The notes below the pieces were generated by a model. That model searched no databases and was not told the DNA's origin. It worked only from the letters and a program-made list of their open reading frames with translations. From positions 1-64,000 of the IMG/VR virus record IMGVR_UViG_3300028805_000081: DNA of 64,000 nucleotides. One strand, written 5' to 3'. Shown one piece after another: positions 2,655 through 33,030 of the stretch (its first letter is position 1; each line of letters starts with the position of its first letter). The translations under genes were made by a program, and so were the position numbers. The stretch is from a virus. Lineage: Duplodnaviria > Caudoviricetes.

Positions 2655-3620
2655 TCAACTCCCTACGACTTCAACTACCGTAAAGCCTTTGCTGTTTAAA
2701 TATTCACCATTTCTGATTTGTTCATGTGTCATATAGTTCCATAATGTTGGCGGAGTTTGACCTGCAGGATAATGGGATTTGCAAATTACATTTGTATTTA
2801 AATTTCCATCGTCATATGCTATTACTAGTAATTGATGCATTGTTGAATCAGTCATATCTGTAAGATCTAAATCAATCACACAATTAGTCCATATTGTCAA
2901 GTAATCTCCATAGTTTGACTGTATACTGCCTAATACACTTGATAGCCAGCCACCATTTACCTTGCTTACCTCACCACTAATTTTTCCTTGTACTCTACAA
3001 TCTGTGAAATTACAATTAGGAAACATTGATACACTATTTTGATTTCCTACATGAAGCTCAATATCTGTGTCTGAAAGGTCTACTTTTTTTATTAAATGAG
3101 TAACTAATGTAGATGCTACCAAATATATTGCACAGTTATCCATCTTTGAACTGTCAGTGTTCAAATCAGTATGTCCAAAAGGTATTGTTGTTGTACCAGC
3201 AACATTTATAGATATTGACACATCATGCCATTCAACATACTCAGCAAATAGTTTGCTTGTAGCAGAACCCATGAATACATTTCTTAATGAACCATTGCTA
3301 ATTGATATTTTGCCTAAGTGTGCAGTACTATCCCAGTATTGTCCCTTAAACATTGTTTCACCATCAGCAATTAAGAAGTTTTTAATAGTACAACCATTCA
3401 AATTAATATAAATAGTAGCAGTTCCCTGATTACCGTTCGATGGAACAAATGCGTGCCACTTAAATTCTGAACCATAAGTGTTACAATCTATAACTTGATT
3501 AGGTGTATCAAAGAACTGAATATACGTTGTATTATTTAGTGTGCCTGAAAGCGACATAAACTCATCATAGTTATGGACTATCCAAGGATCTGTCTGAGTA
3601 CCTGAACCTGTTACTGCCAT
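2655..3620 (-). CDS. putative tail-tip adhesin / beta-helix protein
   Basis: N-terminus MAVTGSGTQTDPWIVHN and C-terminus IRNGEYLNSKGFTVVEVVG are shared with 763..1614. Confidence 0.6.
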   Translation of the reverse strand: MAVTGSGTQTDPWIVHNYDEFMSLSGTLNNTTYIQFFDTPNQVIDCNTYGSEFKWHAFVPSNGNQGTATIYINLNGCTIKNFLIADGETMFKGQYWDSTAHLGKISISNGSLRNVFMGSATSKLFAEYVEWHDVSISINVAGTTTIPFGHTDLNTDSSKMDNCAIYLVASTLVTHLIKKVDLSDTDIELHVGNQNSVSMFPNCNFTDCRVQGKISGEVSKVNGGWLSSVLGSIQSNYGDYLTIWTNCVIDLDLTDMTDSTMHQLLVIAYDDGNLNTNVICKSHYPAGQTPPTLWNYMTHEQIRNGEYLNSKGFTVVEVVGS

Positions 3621-3970
3621 TACCCAACACCTACCCCGTCTGTATCCTTTACAACATTGAACACTCCTCTTGCTTTCTTGAAGTAGTTAGTTCCGTCACT
3701 AAGAACAATCTTTGCTGTGTATGTGCCGGGTTCTAAATTTGCCGTAGTTTCAGAGTCAAGTGTTACGCTAAATACGTTTGTTGTGTCCTGTTTCAGAATC
3801 ATACTTTCCGATAGAATATTAGAATCCTCAAACCCGTACTGACTGAGAACATAGTAGGCGGTATATGTTGAGTAGTCCGGGACGCTGCCATCTTTAAGGA
3901 CAAATTCGTATTCCATCGCTACTGTATCGCCAGCCGGGATCGTGATTGGTTCTAACTGAAATAAGGTCAT
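3620..3970 (-). CDS. BppU-like / Ig-fold baseplate accessory protein
   Basis: ITIPAGDT...FSVTLDSETTANLEPGTYTAKIVL pattern typical of BppU N-terminal-like domains; follows Tal. Confidence 0.55.
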   Translation of the reverse strand: MTLFQLEPITIPAGDTVAMEYEFVLKDGSVPDYSTYTAYYVLSQYGFEDSNILSESMILKQDTTNVFSVTLDSETTANLEPGTYTAKIVLSDGTNYFKKARGVFNVVKDTDGVGVG

Positions 3971-4140
3971 GAGTCATCAACCTCACTTTCTTCTTTATCC
4001 TTTGATTCAAGCTCATTCCGGACAGCGTTGAGTGCTTTGAGGACTTCGGCAAGTTTAAAACACTGTTTGCCTTTTATCTCCATATCCATTAAAGCAACTC
4101 CTACATTATCCAAAGTTTGAACCATATCTTTGTTTGTCAT
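3967..4140 (-). CDS. small hypothetical protein (57 aa, not in ORF track)
   Basis: MTNKDMVQTLDNVGVALMDMEIKGKQCFKLAEVLKALNAVRNELESKDKEESEVDDS; upstream AAAGGA; ATGA overlap with the next gene. Confidence 0.65.
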   Translation of the reverse strand: MTNKDMVQTLDNVGVALMDMEIKGKQCFKLAEVLKALNAVRNELESKDKEESEVDDS

Positions 4141-4172
4141 TATGAAATCGTCCTTTCATTTATATTAATCCG

Positions 4173-7172
4173 TTATATTAATAAGCCATCTTTGAAGTGT
4201 AATGTTACACCGTCAATTGTTATGTCAGTTGTTTGTCCGTGCCAGTAATTATTGCCTTGCTTTACGGCAGTTCCACCTGTGATCCAAAGTCTACCGCCAA
4301 TAGTTGCATCAACGCGCTCATCTGTAGCAAAGTAATCCGACACAACAACCCTGTTTATTTTCTGATTTACTCGCAACCATTCAGCTATAAGAGTATGGTT
4401 AAAAGTAGATGTGCCGTTTTGGTCTGTGGTTGTTATACTTGCCGCAGTTACATTACCACTACACAGAACCCCACCAGCATCAGTGTTTAAATGGATGTTA
4501 CCTGCAGTTTCGAGAAAGATAGAATACTGATCCTGAATCTGCGCTGAAATATCTTCCTGTTTGCCGTACATCGTTGCACAGTTGTAAGGATTTGTAGCAG
4601 AGCCTACGTAGAATTTGCCACCAAAGAGAAGGTCTGTGGTTTGGATTTTGCCGGCTTGAAGGTTATCAACAGTGATCATATTCGCAAACATCTGATCACA
4701 ATAGATTTTATCAGCGTAAAGTTCATCCCATAAAGTAGCATTACGTCTGTCCGGATTTACGCTACCAGCTTTAAGCCACGAACCAGCCATGCCCGGTATA
4801 TTACCAGTCAAAGTGAAGATATTACCGTAGCTACCACTGCCATAATCCCATTTAAGATTATTAGCATAAACATCTCCATCAAATATAGCTGAATTTATAT
4901 TATACGATAATAACGATAATTTACCCGTACCATCGGTTTTTATATAATCACCGGCAGAGTTATATAACCCATCACTTCTGATTTCCCATCCGCCAATGTT
5001 ACCGGACTGAAGCTTTATAGAATTAGCTACAATATTACCGCTGTTATCTTCAGACAATACATCGTCCCAAACAGAACCATTCTTTTTCTGTATTTTAAAG
5101 CCATCATCAGGATTAATTAAGATCCTTGATGTGCTGTTATAAACCATAAACGGAGCATTTTCAAGTGATGCCCCGGCTGCATCTATCTTAAATGTTGAGT
5201 TAGCATCCCGGATAACTATCTGAGAACCGGCAATTAACTCGCCTACAAGAGCCTCAGCTACAACACCATAATACTCACTCTGCCCGATTGTTACTTTACC
5301 AATAGCCATTTTACAGCTCTGCCAGTTATCATCAGTAAAGGCAAGAACATTGTTAGTCATAGCTACCTGATGTGGATCATAATCGTTTTCATCATCATCC
5401 CACATACGACCTCTCAAACCATAACTGCCAAGCTTAAACTCCTGATTGTTTGCATTGATTATTTCCTGATTAGCAAGGTTAAGAGCATTATTAATATATT
5501 CTGTTACAGTTCCGTAGAACCCATTATTAACAGGTTCGTCCCATAACGGAGCTGCTAAACTTGTTTTTCTTGATGCTTTTATAGCCTGATTGAACCCATT
5601 TGAAAACTCATATGCACCGCCAATTAATCTATATGTATCAGACAAAATAGCGGTTGAGTTATCCGGGTTATCATAGTCTATTACAAGCTGAATTAATCTC
5701 GGTTCAACCCATTCATTAGGTTCTTTTTCAAGATTTACTGCACCGCCAAGAACGATATTATCCGTAAACTTCTTATATTCCGTATCAAAGAAGAAAGGAC
5801 TGATTTTGCATGTATACTGATATAATGGAGCAGATAATTTCTTCATCATCTGAAGTCCGTACTGATAAAGAGCCTTTTCAGTATCAATTTTACGTTCGTC
5901 AGGCATATCCGTAGTAAACACAAAGTTCTCGTTTTCATATACTGATCCATTGATATAATACTGGAGTTGTTCTAACTGGGTTGGTGTGAAGTTATTCTCA
6001 AAGGACAAAGACTGAACTATTATTTCGATATTGTACATATCACCACGCTTTTCAGCCTCGGCAAAGTCATAATCCATCTGTTTGTTTTTGATCTGATTTT
6101 CTTTAGCTACAATTTGTGGATATATATCTTGCAATCCCTGTTCATTATTAGCAGCAATATCTACCGCCTGTACGTCCTGAAGTGCAAGTAATTCAGATTT
6201 TAAAACCTTTAAATCAGCCTTATATGTAGTTGCTTCTTCAGATGCTTCTCTGAAATTAGCTACTGCTTCTTCATAATCTTCACGTTTTGATTCAATAAGA
6301 TCTAACCAGTCTGTAACCGCAGCTTGTAAATCTTGTGGCATACCCCATTTTTCATCGTTCATATAATAAGAAAAATCATAAATAACATCATTTCCGAGAG
6401 GATTTACAAGAGATATTCCAACACCTTCTGCACCTTTTACAGTCAGAGCTGTCACAATATCATCCGAAGATTCTGTGATAGTTTGTTCCTGAATTAAGTT
6501 TCTGAATGAAAAATTGATCCCGGTATTAATCGGTCTATACGTTTCTTCATTCTTACTGTAACAGTTTATCTTTTTATTTACTGTATCAAAGTCAAAGTAA
6601 CACTTAAATGTATCAGCTACCGTACCCATCAAGAATCCGTAAACTTGCTCATCATCAATATCCATCGTTCGATATTCTTTGAGTAAATCTGCGTCTACAT
6701 GCCCTATTGTCCAGCCTGTTTGCTGTTCAACTAAATATAACAGGGTAGGGAACTGCGCTAAAGATCCGTCCGGTTGTGGTACTTGTGAACCGTGAGCTGG
6801 ATCAATTGCATCCCACAATTTCATATATGTGTTTGCTGTATATGTTAAAGTAGTTTTATTAAGCGTTTCTTCGTAAGAATGAGCCGTAACATCTGCATAA
6901 TCTGTTTGTCCGTTCTGTGTATTGTCAACACTGTAGATTACAAATCTTCCAAATCCCTCAATTTCAAGTACCATACCTTTCTTCAAACAGTCATAATACT
7001 GTGAATTTTTATAGCACTTGAAAGTTAATTCTGATAAATTACAAAAAGTAGGTTTAATTACAACATTAAAAACATCAAGATAGCCGATCATAGCTAAGTC
7101 GAGTCTGTGTATGGAAATCTTAGGCTGCTTAATTAACCCTAATGAGTTATGATTAAAAACCATTATTAACAA
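4173..7172 (-). CDS. baseplate hub / tail-associated (Tal-like) protein
   Basis: 999 aa directly after Dit; GWTIGHVD, FKCYFDFDT, IVTALTVKG and NPLGNDVIYDFSYY motifs typical of siphovirus tail endopeptidase-like proteins; true start may be 7163. Confidence 0.8.
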   Translation of the reverse strand: MLIMVFNHNSLGLIKQPKISIHRLDLAMIGYLDVFNVVIKPTFCNLSELTFKCYKNSQYYDCLKKGMVLEIEGFGRFVIYSVDNTQNGQTDYADVTAHSYEETLNKTTLTYTANTYMKLWDAIDPAHGSQVPQPDGSLAQFPTLLYLVEQQTGWTIGHVDADLLKEYRTMDIDDEQVYGFLMGTVADTFKCYFDFDTVNKKINCYSKNEETYRPINTGINFSFRNLIQEQTITESSDDIVTALTVKGAEGVGISLVNPLGNDVIYDFSYYMNDEKWGMPQDLQAAVTDWLDLIESKREDYEEAVANFREASEEATTYKADLKVLKSELLALQDVQAVDIAANNEQGLQDIYPQIVAKENQIKNKQMDYDFAEAEKRGDMYNIEIIVQSLSFENNFTPTQLEQLQYYINGSVYENENFVFTTDMPDERKIDTEKALYQYGLQMMKKLSAPLYQYTCKISPFFFDTEYKKFTDNIVLGGAVNLEKEPNEWVEPRLIQLVIDYDNPDNSTAILSDTYRLIGGAYEFSNGFNQAIKASRKTSLAAPLWDEPVNNGFYGTVTEYINNALNLANQEIINANNQEFKLGSYGLRGRMWDDDENDYDPHQVAMTNNVLAFTDDNWQSCKMAIGKVTIGQSEYYGVVAEALVGELIAGSQIVIRDANSTFKIDAAGASLENAPFMVYNSTSRILINPDDGFKIQKKNGSVWDDVLSEDNSGNIVANSIKLQSGNIGGWEIRSDGLYNSAGDYIKTDGTGKLSLLSYNINSAIFDGDVYANNLKWDYGSGSYGNIFTLTGNIPGMAGSWLKAGSVNPDRRNATLWDELYADKIYCDQMFANMITVDNLQAGKIQTTDLLFGGKFYVGSATNPYNCATMYGKQEDISAQIQDQYSIFLETAGNIHLNTDAGGVLCSGNVTAASITTTDQNGTSTFNHTLIAEWLRVNQKINRVVVSDYFATDERVDATIGGRLWITGGTAVKQGNNYWHGQTTDITIDGVTLHFKDGLLI

Positions 7173-8026: not shown

Positions 8027-11000
8027 TCACACACTTCTTAATGTTCTGCCATTATATATATTAGTTTGCTGATTTACAACCTTGAATACGTCATTAACAA
8101 TAGACTCACGTACTGCTTTTAACTTATCAACAGTTGATGAATCAGCATCACCATTAATAACTATGTCACCCATATTGATAACCGGGGCTACCGAGTTATT
8201 TGTTACAGGCGCATTAGCTGTAAGTTTTGGTAAGGTATTCTCCATGAAATTCCTTGCCTGTTCTGCCGTAGCTACGACTTCACCTTTAAGGAGTTTTGCA
8301 AGGACTTCACCATGAGGATTTTGAGCAACGCCTTCAACGATACCCCCATTATGATACTTAGGTGTTCTCCAGTGTGGCATATTCTTCTTTTGCTCTGCCG
8401 TTACTGTTACTGAAGATGCTTTGCTATTATACAGGTTTGTGTAACCAGTATCATAATATCTTGGATCTTGACCAACAGTAGACCATGACGTGTTAGTAAG
8501 TGCTTGCATATTAGCCTTGGTTTCATTGAGAACCTTATTGAAATTAGCCATATCATTTGTAGCCGAAGTAGTATAAGACGATGTGGCGTTCTTCAGACTG
8601 TTCATAGCATTTTCAAGATCTTTAGTCTGCTGTTCGGCTACCGCCATCTGAGCTATAAGATTTGATAGTGCCAAATCGACATTTAACTGACCGTTTGCAT
8701 ATCTTTCGATTGCAAGATACGCACTGTTCCAAAGATTATCAAACTCTGCACGACTCTTTTTAGTATAATTCATCGTGTAAGCGAGTAAGTCATTGTAGAA
8801 CTGCTGTGATTTGCCATTAATTAAATTAATAGCATCTTCTCTGATTTTGCCTTCGTGATCAAGATAATCATCAATGACTTTAATTTGTGCTTCTATCTGC
8901 GATTCGTAGTCCTCTTGCTGTTTACTTAAAGCATCTTTTCTTAGGTCAGTTTCATGTTCCAATAAGAAATCAGTTTGTTCTGCTTGTTTCTCTTTGAGTT
9001 TTTGTTCAAGTTCAGCCTTACGTTTCATATCTTCAAGCGAATAGTTTGCACCTTCGATACTTAACGCTGCTATTTCTTGTTCGATATTAAGAATATTCTT
9101 ATTTTTTTCGTTTAAATTTTTCTCGAAATTATATTGATCTTTTTCGAGATCAATTAATTGTTTCCTACGTTCAATAAGTTTCTTATATCCTTCAAGATTT
9201 TCCTTTAATTCATTCTTACGGTCATTTTTTTGACGCTTCAACATATCCATAGTAAGATCAATTAAATCTTCTATGTCTTTCTTAGCGTCTTTCATTTGGT
9301 CAGAAAGGTCTTTTATAGCGTTCTTCTGATCTTGTAAAGCCTTTGTATGATCCTGTGTTTTATCTTTTGCGCTGTCATGCACCTGACCAAGAACATTTAT
9401 CTGAACCTGTAATTTCTTGATTTGTTCTTCGTATTTCTTTGCTTTTTCAGATGCGTCAATATACTCCTGAATTGCCTTTTGCTGCCCCTCAAGATATTTA
9501 GTGCTAACTTGATATGGATCTGTAGTATTTGTTTTTCTTGCCTGTTCAAGTCTTGCATCAAGCTGCGCTAACTCTATCTTTGCCTGTGCTACTGTTTTGA
9601 TACTTGCCAGTTCATCACTGTAAGCTGCAAGTTTCTCCTTTGTAGCTTGCATAAGAGTATTGGTTTCTTCAAGTTGTGCCTGTAATGAAGTTTTCTGTTC
9701 TTCAAGTTTAGCTTTTCTCAGATTTTCAAGAGCTTCTTCTTCAATCTTATATCCGTACTGGCTTTCGAGAATTGCATCGTTAAGCTGCGGGTACAGGTCA
9801 AGAAGTTCAATAATTTCTGATGCACTAAAGTATTTATCAGGATCGTTGTTTGTCTGAAATGTCTTTTCAAGTTTCTCAAATGACTCGTTTGCATTATTGA
9901 TCTTTACAGTCATTTCAGACGTTGCATTGCCGATAAGCTGTAAGTTTCCGAGGACTTCAGCTAATGGATCTACAAGTTCTTCAACATTATCCTTTGCGGA
10001 TTCAGTTACAAAGATGAGTTCTTTAAGAGCATCAAGAACATATATATCTCCGTTTGCAAATTGTGCTAACTTATCAAAGTAATCTGAGTTAGACAGTGAG
10101 CCTTGTTCAAATAATGCAATATACTGTTCTGCCTGTGCTTTAGAATAACTCTTTACATTGTCAATATAGTCTTTATTCTTTGTTTCAAGTATTGAATACT
10201 GCTTAGAAACAAGATTAAATAATGCTTCTTCTTCATCTGACAATCCACCAACTCTTGTTGCCCGGATGTCAGCAAATTCTAAATACTTCTTTTCAAGTAT
10301 ATCGAAATACTGTATTTCATCCCGGTAAGAGTTAGGATCAATACCTAATTTGAATTGATATTTGCCGTTTTCAGATGTAATACCAGCACTATCAAACAAT
10401 TCTTGAATGTCTTTGCTGATAACATCCTTATCTTGGGTATCAACTCTAATTGAAAATTCGCCAATAGATTGTTTGTTTCCAGCAAAAGCATCTTTAATGC
10501 CTGACCAACCGGTAACAACCCAATTATCATTTAATTCTTTCTTTGCTTCCTCATATGCTTTACGGTTTTGAGCATCATTAAGATAAATACTTCTTTCATT
10601 AATCGACTCTTTTTCAATAGCATCATTTAAATCTTTACGTGCTGTAGTAAGATCTCTGATGTTTTCGATTTCCAAACCGTATTTCTTATTCAGTTCATCC
10701 TTGATTTCATTTAAGCTATTGATTTTATCATACTCTGACTGTTCAGAATCAATTATCTGATCAATTTGTTCAGTGTATGTTTTAAAATCAGCTACATTAT
10801 TTTCAAGTTGTTGTGAATTATCTTTAAGTGACTGAGTAAGTTCCTTGCTGGCATTAACAAGTTTTGAAATGCCTGTTACAACAAGTGAAATAACAAGTCC
10901 GATACCGGCATTAATAACCGCATTGAGTGCTACTGTTGCTGCATTAAGTGCTATAGTAGATGCCGTTGCAGCTCTTTGAGCATTAGCGAATCCTCTTGTT

Positions 11001-11752
11001 GATGCCTGTGCGCCATTAAGAGTAGTAAGATATGCCGCAAAAGTCGGGTTAGATGTTGCCATCTGATTAATGAATTGTCTTTGAGCTTCTGCTCCTTGTG
11101 CGATAGTGGCGTTATAAGCAGCCACAAGATTCTTTGTTTTGCCCAAATTCTGAATGCTAAAGAATCCGCCACCAGCACCACCAATAATACCGGAGATTAC
11201 AGGGATGAGTGTCTTTAATCCGTTTCCGCTTGCTGTAAGTTTGTCTATCGCTTCAGATAAGTTAATTACAAAGTCAAGTACAGCTTTATAATCATCTGAG
11301 TTAAGTATATTTGACGATACACTTTGGAATATAGCAGCTATCTTTTGCTGTTTTGCAATGATAGAGTCTTGCCATGCTTCCTGTTCCGCCATTGCTGAAC
11401 CGGTTGCGTTAGAAGTAGCTTCGATTACTCTTTCTGCATCTTCAAAATTAGTCATAATTGCAGAGAACACGTTTGCCTGTCTCGCACCGGCAAGAAGTTT
11501 TTCTATCGCAGCCTGTTCGTTTACTGTGAGTTCATTCCAAACATGAGATAACTCTCTTAATATTTGTGTTGTATTTTTGTATTCTCCGTTTGCCTTCTGA
11601 ATATCTACCGGGGCAGAAGTTTTTGAAGTGAGTCCTAATACCTGATTTCTGTAGTCAGATATGGTTTCAGCTGCATATTCAGCTTCTTCGCCCATTTCTT
11701 CAAGTTCTGCCTTAGTTGACATAAGACGGAGAGAAATTGTTTTTAATGCTAT
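8027..11752 (-). CDS. tail tape measure protein, exon 3 (spliced product predicted 1940 aa)
   Basis: Begins IALKTISLRL immediately after the intron terminal G at 11753; long coiled-coil with hydrophobic segments. Confidence 0.9.
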   Translation of the reverse strand: MALKTISLRLMSTKAELEEMGEEAEYAAETISDYRNQVLGLTSKTSAPVDIQKANGEYKNTTQILRELSHVWNELTVNEQAAIEKLLAGARQANVFSAIMTNFEDAERVIEATSNATGSAMAEQEAWQDSIIAKQQKIAAIFQSVSSNILNSDDYKAVLDFVINLSEAIDKLTASGNGLKTLIPVISGIIGGAGGGFFSIQNLGKTKNLVAAYNATIAQGAEAQRQFINQMATSNPTFAAYLTTLNGAQASTRGFANAQRAATASTIALNAATVALNAVINAGIGLVISLVVTGISKLVNASKELTQSLKDNSQQLENNVADFKTYTEQIDQIIDSEQSEYDKINSLNEIKDELNKKYGLEIENIRDLTTARKDLNDAIEKESINERSIYLNDAQNRKAYEEAKKELNDNWVVTGWSGIKDAFAGNKQSIGEFSIRVDTQDKDVISKDIQELFDSAGITSENGKYQFKLGIDPNSYRDEIQYFDILEKKYLEFADIRATRVGGLSDEEEALFNLVSKQYSILETKNKDYIDNVKSYSKAQAEQYIALFEQGSLSNSDYFDKLAQFANGDIYVLDALKELIFVTESAKDNVEELVDPLAEVLGNLQLIGNATSEMTVKINNANESFEKLEKTFQTNNDPDKYFSASEIIELLDLYPQLNDAILESQYGYKIEEEALENLRKAKLEEQKTSLQAQLEETNTLMQATKEKLAAYSDELASIKTVAQAKIELAQLDARLEQARKTNTTDPYQVSTKYLEGQQKAIQEYIDASEKAKKYEEQIKKLQVQINVLGQVHDSAKDKTQDHTKALQDQKNAIKDLSDQMKDAKKDIEDLIDLTMDMLKRQKNDRKNELKENLEGYKKLIERRKQLIDLEKDQYNFEKNLNEKNKNILNIEQEIAALSIEGANYSLEDMKRKAELEQKLKEKQAEQTDFLLEHETDLRKDALSKQQEDYESQIEAQIKVIDDYLDHEGKIREDAINLINGKSQQFYNDLLAYTMNYTKKSRAEFDNLWNSAYLAIERYANGQLNVDLALSNLIAQMAVAEQQTKDLENAMNSLKNATSSYTTSATNDMANFNKVLNETKANMQALTNTSWSTVGQDPRYYDTGYTNLYNSKASSVTVTAEQKKNMPHWRTPKYHNGGIVEGVAQNPHGEVLAKLLKGEVVATAEQARNFMENTLPKLTANAPVTNNSVAPVINMGDIVINGDADSSTVDKLKAVRESIVNDVFKVVNQQTNIYNGRTLRSV

Positions 11753-12946
11753 CAATCTGTTGCTTTTATGACCTATTATTAATCAATAGGCGGCAAGGAA
11801 TTTCTTCCTTACTCTGCAATTTTATATATAGTTGCAGTTCAGATCATACCTTTCACCTTGTCATCACGACAATGCTTATTCTGCATACGCTTAACATTAC
11901 TGTTAAACTGTGATCGTTACGGGATTCTATATCAATTTAATATAAAGAATTAATTATTTCGTCTTTTAATATTATTTCGTTGTCTTTAAGGGTATAGTTG
12001 TAAGAATGATAATTTGATAAAGCGCCATTATTTTCAATGTATAATTGAATTAACTTTTTACATAAATCAAAATTATTTATAATATCGTACTCCCACAAAT
12101 ACAATACCTCAATATTTAAATAGTTTTTGATATATGTATGTTTGCGTCTATCGGCATCTATTCTATGCTTTTGTATTTTATTGGGTTCATTTTTATTGAT
12201 TTTAGGATTAGAAATATTATAATGCCAATAATCTCCCATGACTTCGATAATCAAATTATAATCATCTAAATAATTATCAACAGAATAATACTTAACACAA
12301 TATTCATTCTGATAGTTTATTTTCATTGAAGATAAACATTCATTAACTATAATTTGTGGGCGAGTATTGCATTTTCCGAGTTGCATTTTAGTAGTTTCCG
12401 CACCTCTTATTCTTGATTTTTCTTTCCATTCTTCGTCTTGTGAAAATACTTCTCTATGCCAATCTTTTCTACATTGAGCACTACAAAAATGATGTTCATA
12501 TTTATCAAGATTATATTTATGTATTTCAAATAACTCTCCACAATAATCACATGGGATAGTTTTCCCTTGAAATTTAGGATTTTTAAATCCTGTATTGGTT
12601 TTCTGCCATCCCCATTGACATTCCACACTACAAAATCTTTTTGGACTTCCGGGTTTACAAGAATACCATTCATGACAAAATTCACATTGTCTTATCTCAG
12701 TAAACATAAACTTCTTCAATTCTGAAGCACATTCGGCACTACAAGTATATGTTTTCTGTTTCTTAATTCTTGATTGAATCATGTACATTAATTTTCCACA
12801 CCATTGACAACGAATATATTTACCAGTTTTATGCATTTATTAATTCTTCCTTTATTTTTTTTATTTGATATAGTCTTACCCACGGTATTGACCATTTTCA
12901 GGCTGTTCACCGTTTTGAGCAGAATTTAACGTAAGCCTTATTAAAA
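11753..12946 (-). mobile_element. group I intron (TMP intron 2, 1194 nt) containing an endonuclease ORF
   Basis: 5' exon ends in U; P1 CGUAGGU/GCUUACG with U-G at the splice site; P10 UUUUAAU/AUUAAAA; P3 UUCUGC/GCAGAA; P7 GAUCA/UGAUC; terminal G; removal restores the frame (QNPQTVG|IALKTISLR). Confidence 0.9.
11937..12836 (-). CDS. intron-encoded homing endonuclease: N-terminal Zn-finger repeats plus Vsr/DUF559-like (EDxHD-type) nuclease domain
   Basis: Three CxxC...CSxxC units, then YSVDNYL...IIEVMGDYWH...DADRRK...LYLWEYDI. Confidence 0.8.
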   Translation of the reverse strand: MHKTGKYIRCQWCGKLMYMIQSRIKKQKTYTCSAECASELKKFMFTEIRQCEFCHEWYSCKPGSPKRFCSVECQWGWQKTNTGFKNPKFQGKTIPCDYCGELFEIHKYNLDKYEHHFCSAQCRKDWHREVFSQDEEWKEKSRIRGAETTKMQLGKCNTRPQIIVNECLSSMKINYQNEYCVKYYSVDNYLDDYNLIIEVMGDYWHYNISNPKINKNEPNKIQKHRIDADRRKHTYIKNYLNIEVLYLWEYDIINNFDLCKKLIQLYIENNGALSNYHSYNYTLKDNEIILKDEIINSLY

Positions 12947-13093
12947 ACCTACGGTTTGAGGGTTTTGCAAAACGTCGTTGGCTGATACAATAAGTCCAAT
13001 AGACTCTGATAAGCTGTTGTTCGCAGTAGCTAAACTGGAGGCTGAACGCTGAAGTGCTTCACCTACGCCCTCCGCTGAAATGCTAAAATTGTT
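12947..13093 (-). CDS. tail tape measure protein, exon 2 (147 nt, 49 aa; not in ORF track)
   Basis: Translates to NNFSISAEGVGEALQRSASSLATANNSLSESIGLIVSANDVLQNPQTVG, a TP901-type tape measure core segment. Confidence 0.9.
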
Positions 13094-13420
13094 CTTAAAC
13101 TGTTACTTTTTGTCTAATAATAGACATACTGACCATACATAAAATATGGCGGATAGGTATTTCTGCCTATCTCTCACGTTTCATTGTTAAGATTATAGCG
13201 TGAGGTCGGACTGTATATTATACCCTCTTGTCTATATAAAATAGAGTAGGGCAGATAGATTCGGGGCATATGTTGCCACACACCCCACCGCAGTCTCTAC
13301 AATCAGATTACTTTTTATATTTCATAAATAATCTAATCTCGGTCTGAATTATCTCTAACCTTTAACCGATTTATCTATCTACTTATCAACATATTACTAT
13401 GCTGAATCGGCAACAATTCT
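13094..13420 (-). mobile_element. group I intron (TMP intron 1, 327 nt, ORF-less)
   Basis: P1 GUCGGU/GCCGAU with U-G; 9-bp P10 AGAAUUGUU/AACAAUUUU; P3 AGAUAGA/UCUAUCU; P7 GACUG/CAGUC; terminal G; restores DKFNLVG|NNFSIS. Confidence 0.92.
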
Positions 13421-15370
13421 ACCGACTAAGTTAAATTTATCCACTATCTCCATAACGTTTTCAGCTTCAATACCAAACGCCTTCATGGTAGAAATAATGG
13501 ACTGGCTTGCTTCTTCCGCACTCGAAATTTCACCAACATTCTGATAAATTACAGATGCTTTAGCTAATTCCTGTGCTTCATTGATGTTATATCCCAGCTT
13601 TGCGTATTCAGCTGTTGCTTCAATAATATTAGTTATCTCAGTATGAAGTTCCTTTGCAGTAGCCGTGGCATTTTTGAATACATCTTCATAAGTTGCCTCA
13701 GATTCATCAGTAACCTTTCTGAGATTTACCATTGCTGTGTCAAGATCCCGGACGTTCTCTAACAGTTCTCTAAATCCACGGCTGAGTGCCATGAACATAG
13801 ATGTGATACCAGTGAATCGTAATACTCGACCAAAGGTTTCCTTCATTCTCTCACCAAAGGTCTTACCCGCTAACCCAGCATCCTGAACCGCTATCTTTAA
13901 TGATCTAAACTCATTCTGAAGTCTGCGTAAATCATTAACATTGGTAGCATTAGCAATGCCATCACGTAACAACTGAAACTGAACTGTATATGTCTGTGCA
14001 GCTCTTGTATTAGCATTAGCAAACGCTTCAACCTGTTGCTGTAAAATTCTCAGCCTTTGTGTGAACTGTTCATCTCTTGACATAGTTCTCAGCTGAGTCT
14101 GTAATTGCTGTGCATTGTTTGTCAAGACTTTAAGCTTGTCATTAAATGCATCAAGCTCCTGATTGGATTTTACGCCCTCAAGACTACTTCTAAGACCGTC
14201 AACCTTAGTCTTAAAATCTCCGGTATATACTCCGGCTTGTTTCCATCTTTCAATAAGAAGATCAATTTTACTCCGGGCAGTATCTACATTCCGGGCAAGT
14301 GTGGCAGCCGACTCATCACGATCAATATTATTACCCGATTCTTTACGTAAAAGTTTCAGTTCAGATTGTAACTCTTTTACTTTGATCAAAAAATCATTAT
14401 ACTGTTCAGTAGGAACGATTTTACCACTCTGATTGTCAGCTACCATCTGATCCATGATGCTCTTGATGTCGTTATACTTATCAACTACACCTTGTAACTT
14501 ATCAGACTCGCCAACAAACATCTTTGATTCCGGATTAAGACTAAGCTGATTAATCTCATTAAGAGTTATCTTATATCTTTCAAGTGATACCCTTTGTGAT
14601 TCAAGCTGTTTAGTAGTCTGTTCAAAAGAATTTGCTCTTACATTACCGCCAGTATATTTGAAAAACTCCTGAATTACATTACCTTCATCGTCTTTTATCT
14701 TGACAAGATTGTAATGAAGTTTCTGTAACTGATCATTAGCATCCTTGATTTCAGCTGTGAACCCGGTAATCTCATTATTCTTATTGAAAGTATAATTAAT
14801 AGTCGGATTACCAGTCTTACCAAGTACAGATGCCTGATAATCTGCTAAGAAATCCTGTCTTGTATCATATGTTGATTTAAGTGAACCCCATCCTTCGACA
14901 ACATGATTAAGAGTTTTGCCCATTGCCTGAAGTTGAGCATCGACAGCTCTTATTTCTTCAACATCTCTTTCGACAGATGACTTCAGAATAAATCCTTCAG
15001 TATTATCAGTAAACTTTGCTCTGTCAAAATTAAGAGTTTTAATAGCTTCTCCGGCTTCAGCAATTCTCGCCTTGAATTTAGAAAGTCCCTCGTTATCAAA
15101 TATTTCATCAATTTTAATATCAAGATTCTTTGTGCCAGTAGGATCAAACATCTTCATAAGCTGACTCTTAATGTCATTTGCACTTTCAAGATATTTACGT
15201 CCCTGTGCTTCAAGATCTGCTTTATCAAATATAGTTATCTGCCCGGCTTTACCTTTATTATTGACATTTACAGAACCACTGATATTATCTAACGCACTCT
15301 GAACATTCTTTTTGGTTTCCTTTTCGTCAAGTCTGCCTACCAAGGTCAAAATAAAATTTTCGTCTGCCAT
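13421..15370 (-). CDS. tail tape measure protein, exon 1 (650 codons)
   Basis: LDTAMVNLRKVTD, YAKLGY and IISTMKAFGIEA...IVDKFN motifs; the ORF reads 7 codons into the intron before stopping. Confidence 0.9.
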
Positions 15371-15383
15371 TTACTCACCACCT

Positions 15384-15866
15384 TTATAACAATGTCCAGC
15401 CATTTTTGGCTTCGCATTTACATCCCGTTTTATGTTCTATATTCTTTGCAAAATCTCTCATAACAGCATCGTTCCAAGTAACAACTAATGCATCGTCCCA
15501 AAAGTGATTATTTGATTGATAACCTATGGTTTCGACACCGTGTTCACCACGATTGGCAGCAACTACAACTTCATAGCCATTGCCTTGAAACTGCATATCT
15601 TCACCATAATCATATACATACGTCATGCTCTCATAATCAACAGCAACCGAGCTAAAATATGTACCACCTATAAGTTGCACTTCTTCAGTGACAACAGAAT
15701 TCCGGAACTGATTTGTTCTGTTATAACGTTTTGGATTAAACTCATCATAGTAAGTCCGGATTGTACCTTTTACTTCATTTGTAGCAAACTTAGTAATATC
15801 CTTCATCCCGTCCTTAACGAGTTTATTTAGCTTTTTGTTTAGATTTGCGTATGTTCTTATTCCCAT
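15384..15866 (-). CDS. putative neck/tail-completion protein (HK97 gp10-like)
   Basis: YYDEFNPKRYNRTNQFRNS motif; start reassigned to the ATG at 15866 behind GTGAGG. Confidence 0.55.
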   Translation of the reverse strand: MGIRTYANLNKKLNKLVKDGMKDITKFATNEVKGTIRTYYDEFNPKRYNRTNQFRNSVVTEEVQLIGGTYFSSVAVDYESMTYVYDYGEDMQFQGNGYEVVVAANRGEHGVETIGYQSNNHFWDDALVVTWNDAVMRDFAKNIEHKTGCKCEAKNGWTLL

Positions 15867-16347
15867 TGTCCTCACTATCCTTTTCCAACTGTTCGCCAGC
15901 CTTTGCGAGAACCTCCATAGCCTTTGTAATTCCCTTATCTTCAATCCAAGTATTGAGTTTATCAAGAAGTGTACCGAGATAAACGTCTGTAATAGAATAC
16001 ACTGATTTCTGAAGTGAAAGATCTTTTAAGTAACCAACCTTGTTATATACCGCAGCCACTAAAGCACTGAAGTCCGGGTTTCCGTCAATCTCCATCTTCT
16101 CATCTAAGTTGAGTTTATCAAATTCCTTCTCAATATTTTCAAAGAATCCAAGACTGAAGATGTCTGTTTCGAGATCATAATTTTCCTCAAACTCAGCCTT
16201 AAGAATGTACTTAGCGTAGTAGTATTTGTACAGAAAATCTTCTCTTTCCGGGTGATATTCCCACTGACCGAGAGCGTTTACAAATATGATCTGATTTGTA
16301 ATCACGTCTACAGCCTTTTCAAACTCTTGTAAAGTAAAATATTTCAT
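15823..16347 (-). CDS. hypothetical protein (tail module)
   Basis: 174-aa ORF with AGGAG RBS, in the operon. Confidence 0.65.
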   Translation of the reverse strand: MKYFTLQEFEKAVDVITNQIIFVNALGQWEYHPEREDFLYKYYYAKYILKAEFEENYDLETDIFSLGFFENIEKEFDKLNLDEKMEIDGNPDFSALVAAVYNKVGYLKDLSLQKSVYSITDVYLGTLLDKLNTWIEDKGITKAMEVLAKAGEQLEKDSEDNGNKNIRKSKQKAK

Positions 16348-16365
16348 TATATTTTCTCCTATATA

Positions 16366-16932
16366 TTATCGAATTTTGCAGTCTACAAACATATCAATGA
16401 GATTATCTACTGCATAATCGTAGTTTACACGTTTGATTGTTTGCGGAATGTGTATGCCTGAGTTTTCAATTACGTCCTGTTCATTGAACGACTTCTTATT
16501 AGTCCTTTCAGTGAACTTCAGAAAATTCTTTATCTCCCAAAAGTATGTATGGTTAGTAGTTTCTCTGAAATTAATCACAAGACCGGCTACAATTCCTTCA
16601 TGATCATTAGCTTCCTTTAATCCAAGAATCTGATGTTTCTTTATCATAGATTCATTTGCAGCTCTCAGATTTGTAAGCTCAATTTTTTCACTCCAAAACG
16701 ACAGGGAAGTGTGTTTAGTAGATTTTAATTCAAAACAGAATAACGTTCCGTCTACATAAACGAGGCAGTCATAAGGATTATCCGGAGTGAATTTAATATC
16801 CGTTGCATTACAAAAACTGCTTGCACTGTCCTTTAATCGTACATAGTAATATCCACGGCTTTTTATACTGTCTTTGAAATTCTTCTCAAAGATTTTGCCC
16901 GGATTCAGACTCATCTCAATTTCTCCCTTCAC
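16366..16932 (-). CDS. recU: RecU-like Holliday junction resolvase (PD-(D/E)xK)
   Basis: GKIFEKNF...PYDCLV...CFELKST...IKKHQI..L; start probably 16914. Confidence 0.75.
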   Translation of the reverse strand: MKGEIEMSLNPGKIFEKNFKDSIKSRGYYYVRLKDSASSFCNATDIKFTPDNPYDCLVYVDGTLFCFELKSTKHTSLSFWSEKIELTNLRAANESMIKKHQILGLKEANDHEGIVAGLVINFRETTNHTYFWEIKNFLKFTERTNKKSFNEQDVIENSGIHIPQTIKRVNYDYAVDNLIDMFVDCKIR

Positions 16933-32958: not shown

Positions 32959-33030
32959 TTGCAGCACCGGGAATTGAACCCGGATCTACAGGTTATGAGC
33001 CTGTTGTGTTACCATTACACTCATGCTGCG
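32959..33030 (-). tRNA. tRNA-Met(CAT), initiator-like
   Basis: Cloverleaf: acceptor CGCAGCA/TGCTGCA (C1:A72 mismatch), anticodon arm ACAGG-CTCATAA-CCTGT, T arm CCGGG-TTCAATT-CCCGG; CCA not encoded. Confidence 0.9.

Follow-up and report, generated by a model that had tools for sequence, protein, structure and literature searches.

Organization of the tape-measure locus

The window analysed here is the first 64 kb of the 109,929-bp IMG/VR record IMGVR_UViG_3300028805_000081, which represents an uncultured, siphovirus-like phage that DNA sequencing runs place in sheep-gut metagenomes. On the minus strand, between positions 8027 and 15370, lies a gene for a tail tape measure protein (TMP) whose coding sequence is distributed over three exons. 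Very probably, the gene is split by two related IA-type group I introns, which lie in the conserved PhageMin_Tail region with 147 nt between them and whose excision yields one mRNA for a protein of 1940 amino acids (aa), and the second intron carries a homing endonuclease gene. The features, all on the minus strand, are as follows.

13421..15370, minus strand, TMP exon 1: 650 aa, ending in DKFNLVG, with the last GGT codon at 13423-13421
13094..13420, minus strand, intron 1: 327 nt, without an open reading frame (ORF), IA-type group I, last base G13094
12947..13093, minus strand, TMP exon 2: 147 nt encoding 49 aa (NNFSISAEG...QNPQTVG), ending in GGT, phase 0 at both ends
11753..12946, minus strand, intron 2: 1194 nt, of the same family as intron 1, with an ORF in the P6 loop, last base G11753
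11937..12836, minus strand, predicted intron-encoded homing endonuclease gene: 299 aa
8027..11752, minus strand, TMP exon 3: 1241 aa plus stop codon, starting with IALKTISLR

The joined product comprises 650+49+1241 = 1940 aa. Reading the sequence confirmed every exon and intron coordinate of a first-pass annotation of this DNA, as well as its statements that both introns follow a GGT codon, end in G and are phase 0.

The gene encodes a phage tail tape measure protein, as indicated by the matches to PF10145 and phrog_4211, by the Dit gene (phrog_33) downstream, which is followed by a minor tail protein gene in the usual post-TMP order, and by the length of 1940 aa, which fits a molecular ruler. 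The PHROG TMP profile phrog_4211 is colinear with the three exons, with profile positions 239-720 in exon 1, 722-771 in exon 2 and 773-1513 in exon 3. The Pfam PF10145 match (positions 3-86 of 201) stops at the end of exon 1, and the TMP profile matches end at residue 649/650. In the IMG/VR contigs L006, L007 and L008 the exon 1 and exon 2 segments adjoin in frame with no residue between them, and in L006 and L008 exon 2 runs on into exon 3 in the same way. Brevibacillus phage Sundance, which has been cultured, likewise has the exon 1 and exon 2 segments contiguous in its annotated tape-measure gene. Exon 2 is 55-61% identical to the contiguous segment in these four sequences, belongs to the conserved PF10145/phrog_4211 core, and no homologue examined lacks it. 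The exon map, both 3' splice junctions included, is thus fixed by the colinear protein homology and by the contiguity of the exons in intron-less homologues. The spliced product that had been predicted, DKFNLVG/NNFSISAEG...QNPQTVG/IALKTISLR, holds on the same two grounds, and the 49-aa segment, whose absence from homologous proteins would have spoken against the prediction, is found there contiguous with both flanks. The start of exon 3, used as a query for related loci, gave no match.

In the program-made ORF list this region appears as two long minus-strand ORFs (13397..15370 and 8027..11755) separated by a gap of 1.6 kb that holds one ORF of 299 aa. Exon 2 has no start codon and no listed ORF of at least 40 aa. 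It had been anticipated that annotation would break the gene and miss exon 2, and the ORF list bears this out: a standard gene caller would give two broken tail genes plus an orphan nuclease and lose the 49-aa exon. Phage genes that are split around free-standing endonucleases are known, and the two long ORFs that gene finders would give also suit a TMP that exists in pieces, as separate polypeptides encoded around a free-standing endonuclease gene and never joined by splicing. We find this scarcely credible. A piece corresponding to exon 2 would lack a start, both intervening sequences fall into a ribozyme family that shows covariation, with E values of 2e-17 or better, and a base-exact exon 2-exon 3 junction in RNA contigs contradicts it for intron 2; the latter two results are described below.

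A phage family of IA-type group I introns

A sequence pattern derived from the 3' motifs shared by the two introns retrieved ten homologous cores from IMG/VR. A second pattern, comprising R-like and S-like elements (AGAGACUG … CAGUCYGRAC), matched at least 118 IMG/VR stretches, a minority of which are chance matches. The two introns of the TMP gene are members of a large family of IA-type phage group I introns, for which IMG/VR contains more than 100 loci. Family members occupy the same two TMP sites in many contigs, with the flanking residues …VG/NN(F/Y)(A/S)IS and …QxPxxVG/xxLKTxSxR, and ORF-less members are kept at the site of intron 1 in otherwise open TMP genes of many other contigs. The common 3' architecture noted earlier for the two introns is real and family-wide, consisting of an AGAAAU-looped hairpin, CCGCC, a second hairpin that GCC/GGU closes, and AAAGYAACAG.

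Covariation was assessed in an alignment of 15 ORF-less members, intron 1 included, with helices P3 (pseudoknotted with P7), P4, P5, P7, P7.1, P9 and P9.1 assigned by eye. In this alignment 96.2% of the cells were paired; shuffled controls reached 72.8% and slid partners 29-39%. Both sides had changed in 31 of the 42 pairs, and covariation is strong for P3, P4, P5, P7.1, P9 and P9.1. The invariance of P7 in this set stems from the search pattern, in which its sequence was fixed. P6 and P8, observed in the individual sequences, stand outside the formal count. The P3 and P7 pairings proposed for both introns held when checked sequence by sequence, with P3 covarying and P7 showing compensatory variants.

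Covariance models built from other contigs only locate the introns within the 110-kb genome. Model R1, which describes the 3' domain and comprises 52 sequences, matches intron 1 at 13304-13096 with 139.8 bits (E 7e-40) and intron 2 at 11924-11753 with 63.9 bits (E 2e-17), the latter match ending exactly on the predicted 3' splice site. R1 gave no other credible match over the whole genome; its third match, at 6462-6568, scored 15 bits and is noise. Model R2, a model of P3-P5 derived from 14 other sequences, matches intron 1 at 13384-13328 (43.6 bits, E 4e-7). A second R2 match, at 50228-50156, is spurious and falls within an intact 345-aa ORF. Judged by these models, the agreement of the sequence features with a group I assignment is far beyond chance, with R1 finding exactly the two expected places.

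Megablast and blastn searches with the region and with intron 1 as queries returned no match among 50,697 phage records. A pattern scan of bacterial genome contigs gave 120 matches; among the 80 tested with R1 one is real (L196, in a Bacteroidales metagenome-assembled genome) and the rest look like chance, a result that gives no host. Subgroup IA2 is defined, as quoted in PMC4227781, by a pair of additional hairpins, P7.1 and P7.2, in domain 7 and by an extension of P9 that comprises P9.0, P9.1 and P9.2. All family members have one long GNRA-capped hairpin between P7 and P3', with no second hairpin seen in any of them, and the P9 region is extended to three or four hairpins. The family is IA-like, and the two-hairpin feature of IA2 is not clearly evident in it.

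Structures of the two introns

The helices assigned to intron 1 are listed below.

13427-13421/13411-13405, minus strand, P1
13418-13412/13093-13087, minus strand, P10
13404-13398/13393-13387, minus strand, P2 (GUAA loop)
13380-13373/13260-13253, minus strand, P3
13369-13365/13343-13339, minus strand, P4
13360-13356/13351-13347, minus strand, P5 (GAGA loop)
13338-13329/13310-13301, minus strand, P6
13295-13291/13213-13209, minus strand, P7
13286-13277/13272-13263, minus strand, P7.1 (GCAA loop)
13251-13223, minus strand, P8
13204-13199/13178-13173, minus strand, P9
13170-13153, minus strand, P9.1
13150-13132, minus strand, P9.2
13125-13112, minus strand, P9.3

Those assigned to intron 2 are the following.

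12953-12947/12936-12930, minus strand, P1
12924-12919/11884-11879, minus strand, P3
12913-12909/12886-12882, minus strand, P4
12903-12901/12893-12891, minus strand, P5
12873-12867/11933-11927, minus strand, P6
11915-11911/11846-11842, minus strand, P7
11906-11891, minus strand, P7.1 (GUAA loop)
11872-11858, minus strand, P8
11837-11814, minus strand, P9
11811-11794, minus strand, P9.1
11791-11771, minus strand, P9.2

P1 forms with seven of seven pairs in each intron, and the last exon U is paired with G at the splice site, as had been proposed for both. The claim that P10 pairs with the 3' exon stands for intron 1, where it is a perfect 7-bp helix; in intron 2 this pairing is weak or offset. 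Intron 1 folds with a predicted energy of -101 kcal/mol (z = -7.3 relative to shuffles), and its minimum free energy fold recovers all of the non-pseudoknot helices, namely P2, P3, P4, P5, P6, P7.1, P8, P9, P9.1, P9.2 and P9.3. The same fold pairs the guide region GAAUUGUUGC (13419-13410) with the conserved 3'-terminal GUAACAGUUU (13106-13097), an arrangement that would compete with P10. The motif AAAGUAACAG is almost invariant throughout the intron family. A helix closing P9 through GACC (13207-13204) and GGUC (13134-13131) was considered and rejected, because the covarying partner of GGU is the GCC in hairpin P9.2; L022a and further members have GCU/AGU there.

For intron 2, the assignment of the 5' half rests on hand-checked pairings together with the RNA contigs described below; the pairings comprise P1, P3 (UUCUGC/GCAGAA), P4, and P6 (CUAUAUC/GAUAUAG), which closes the loop that holds the ORF. 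P7 of intron 2 is GAUCA/UGAUC, which differs by three compensatory changes from the GACUG/CAGUC of the family, and the family member L011 has GACUA/UAGUC, likewise a compensatory variant.

RNA evidence and alternatives to complete splicing

The RNA data are contigs from two metatranscriptome runs, X3 and X18, of one sheep-gut sample, and were compared with the DNA runs X1 (the likely source) and X4. A 279-nt contig in X18 consists of 11501-11752 followed by 12947-12973 (252+27 nt) with no mismatch, so that exactly the 1194 nt of intron 2 are skipped. In X3, a 556-nt contig comprises 11213-11752 (540 nt) plus 16 letters identical to the end of exon 2, and a separate contig covers intron 2 from 11802 to 12930, short of both exon boundaries. 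The 11752-12947 joint is absent from the contigs of the DNA runs X1 and X4. These contigs agree with the prediction of exact intron 2 splicing, and show the excision of intron 2 at the level of RNA contigs. The expectation of spliced transcripts is borne out for intron 2, with the 12947/11752 joint present, but not for intron 1, for which no spliced contig was seen. The splicing of intron 1 is predicted from its structure and from comparison with its homologues.

Several observations weigh against the interpretation as two functional group I introns. The 13421/13093 joint was not seen in the RNA contigs, and the boundaries of intron 1 are covered in unspliced form only (X3 13382-13932; X18 12975-13220); the lack of an X3 contig across 12931-13381 is no evidence on intron 1. 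The two RNA runs share a single sample, DNA may be present in an RNA library, and the intron 2 joint could in principle derive from an otherwise identical strain that lacks the intron. P10 of intron 2 is weak or offset, since the sole 7-bp complementarity to the 3' exon begins 5 nt past the junction. R2 scores 9.8 bits on intron 2, which is not significant; this is the best match in the region, falls at the predicted place and has all pairs standard. Finally, the general group I model Rfam RF00028 matches neither intron, at its gathering score (50 bits) or at E values up to 10, and over the whole genome finds two other places only, both weak. A search with group I models, recommended in the first-pass annotation, was thus negative with Rfam but positive with the family models, R1 on both introns and R2 on intron 1. 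RF00028 does align the family member L094 (35.5 bits, E 1.9e-5); it assigns the helices in the same way but treats the P7.1 hairpin between P7 and P3' as an insertion, and this treatment explains why the model misses the subfamily. RF00028 is weak on this phage intron subfamily.

X4 is another gut metagenome and contains a 90-95% identical relative that has intron 2 and its ORF. In one X4 DNA contig, intron 2 is present and position 13051 is then joined to 13428, with about 50 letters unplaced, the length expected of a diverged relative lacking intron 1; the contig is consistent with an intron-1-less allele in that relative. Other X4 contigs contain intron 1, which points to a presence/absence polymorphism. 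A joint in X1 between 11776 and 13191, in a 376-nt contig with about 25 nt matched on each side, was set aside, as it probably reflects conserved motifs of another intron.

Could intron 1 be decayed or poorly spliced? Most transcripts would then keep it and stop 7 codons into the intron, full-length TMP would be rare or not made at all, and the phage would be defective or its TMP level throttled. The exclusively unspliced RNA contigs over both boundaries, the lack of an endonuclease gene in intron 1 and the 13051-13428 joint in X4 would all suit such decay. We nonetheless regard it as very unlikely, given that intron 1 scores higher than intron 2 with the family models (139.8 and 43.6 bits), that all of its helices are intact, with perfect 7-bp P1 and P10 and the low z of its fold, and that many contigs keep ORF-less members at the same site of open TMP genes. 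Moreover, contigs show presence, not absence, and RNA libraries include precursor RNA as well as DNA.

Alternative splicing is a further consideration. Because both introns are phase 0, joining exon 1 to exon 3 in part of the transcripts would give an in-frame TMP shorter by 49 aa beside the full-length protein. There are precedents: in orf142 of Staphylococcus phage Twort, which has several group I introns, exon skipping was reported (Landthaler and Shub 1999, as cited in PMC11878797), and in the SIOphi polymerase gene an exon is skipped in 47% of transcripts (PMC11878797). Twort orf142 resembles the present gene in being a multi-intron tail gene but differs in that it is a tail tube gene with three introns, and skipping there was shown by experiment. 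For the TMP gene we judge skipping unlikely. None of the contigs examined contains a 13421-11752 joint, and the pairing partner of the intron 1 guide sequence is exon 2, not exon 3. Exon 2 lies in the conserved core and was found in every homologue examined, so a TMP without it may not work. More doubtful still is the idea that the two phase-0 introns do more than ride along as selfish elements and tune the TMP, its amount or length being set by slow or differential removal of intron 1 or by loss of the 49-aa exon from the transcript; if this were true, tail assembly would hinge on ribozyme activity and so, for instance, on the host's guanosine or Mg2+ state.

Under the two-intron interpretation, each intron would excise itself through two transesterifications started by free guanosine, and ligation of the exons would produce the single mRNA for the 1940-aa TMP. 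The endonuclease of intron 2 presumably cuts intron-less TMP alleles, whose repair would copy the intron in. Intron 1, which lacks an ORF, may be immobile, or may be co-converted with its neighbour intron 2, 147 bp away. Self-catalysis, endonuclease activity and homing are all inferred.

The predicted intron-encoded endonuclease

The endonuclease ORF (12836..11937) sits in the P6 loop of intron 2 and has a Shine-Dalgarno-like AAAGGAAG upstream. The first-pass annotation mentioned neither this gene nor the precedents for such an arrangement in tape-measure genes. Residues ~1-150 form three Cys4 zinc-finger-like repeats (zf-FCS/TRASH-like; Pfam zf-FCS; PHROG 1271), and residues ~155-260 form an I-Bth0305I-like (Vsr-like PD-(D/E)xK) nuclease domain. 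The match to PDB 3r3p (I-Bth0305I, 'Mobile intron protein') has an E value of 0.045 with the single sequence and 1.5e-5 with a profile of 23 homologues, the profile match spanning only ~60 residues (164-224). Both proteins are intron-encoded and match in the catalytic domain, whereas the N-terminal part of the present ORF consists of the three Cys4 repeats. The 299-aa ORF has 484 homologues, some of which are named Vsr endonuclease by JGI, and residues E198, D202, H205, D229 and K232 are invariant in the homologue alignment. The I-Bth0305I-like family carries the motif name EDxHD. The ORF product is a predicted homing endonuclease of the I-Bth0305I-like type, and the locus offers an example of such an enzyme with zinc-finger repeats in a TMP intron.

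Comparison with known tape-measure introns

Group I introns of subgroups IA1 and IA2 interrupt the TMP gene at three sites (TMP-IVS1, IVS2 and IVS3a/b) in prophages of the Bacillus cereus group, and in B. cereus E33L one TMP gene has two introns; related introns there carry guide sequences retargeted to different nearby sites (Tourasse and Kolsto 2008, PMC2504315). The introns described here resemble them in being IA-class, in occupying several sites of a conserved TMP part and in having an endonuclease gene in some members only. They differ in host and phage, the TMP of this rumen phage being ~23-45% identical to Bacillus and Brevibacillus phage TMPs, and in that the two introns lie just 147 nt apart; the likeness lies in the features described. 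In the Vibrio phage ICP1, TMP is interrupted by intron-borne HNH endonuclease genes, and TMP is regarded as a frequently interrupted gene (Barth et al. 2023, PMC10448857). The ICP1 enzymes are HNH-3 endonucleases, in contrast to the I-Bth0305I-like enzyme found here, and that phage belongs to another lineage and infects another host.

The present case is an ordinary example of the known TMP group I introns, and ideas of regulation or protein isoforms are speculation. It leaves knowledge of group I introns and of tape-measure genes unchanged. Its value is mainly practical, for gene calling and for recognising this widespread intron subfamily, and it adds a public RNA data point, the exact spliced junction of an uncultured phage in a rumen metatranscriptome.

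Related introns and neighbouring features

The IMG/VR phage contig L022 has two ORF-less family introns in its TMP gene, at 5934-6224 and 6409-6715, with an exon of ~60 codons between them. The first occupies the site of intron 1, and the second lies ~10 codons downstream of the intron 2 site (…RIRG/MKTEL). In the TMP gene of L047 (minus strand, reversed ~3470-4580), a 22-nt exon, ACAAGATCCTGATACAGTGGGT (…V/QDPDTVG/T…), lies between two family introns, one ORF-less and one with an ORF in P6; the same is seen in L039 and L134. The reading frames of L047 suggest a third interruption further upstream, at a …FNEV site.

The intron family is not restricted to TMP genes, since a member at L014:2452-2749 (minus strand) lies in nrdD, within the glycyl-radical motif (…RRLCG/YLGSL), in phase 1. 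In the genome studied here, outside the window, nrdD is also split (L004:1560-1918, G000:C1 ~97395-97753): its ORFs match PF13597 positions 1-263 and then 286-562 plus Gly_radical, with ~360 nt between them. RF00028 matches this gap weakly (21.3 bits, E 1.6e-4). A third group I intron probably occupies the gap; it would be of another subfamily, since R1 does not match there.

About 1 kb upstream of the TMP gene, a 188-aa ORF (16366-16932, minus strand) matches phrog_843 (Holliday junction resolvase) with an E value of 8.7e-24. Two small unassigned ORFs, 15384-15965 and 15823-16347, lie between it and the TMP gene. The location is odd for a resolvase gene, and the ORF may encode a free-standing nuclease. 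A tRNA gene at 32960-33029 (minus strand; 60.8 bits) has the anticodon loop CUCAUAA and the anticodon CAU (Met or Ile2).

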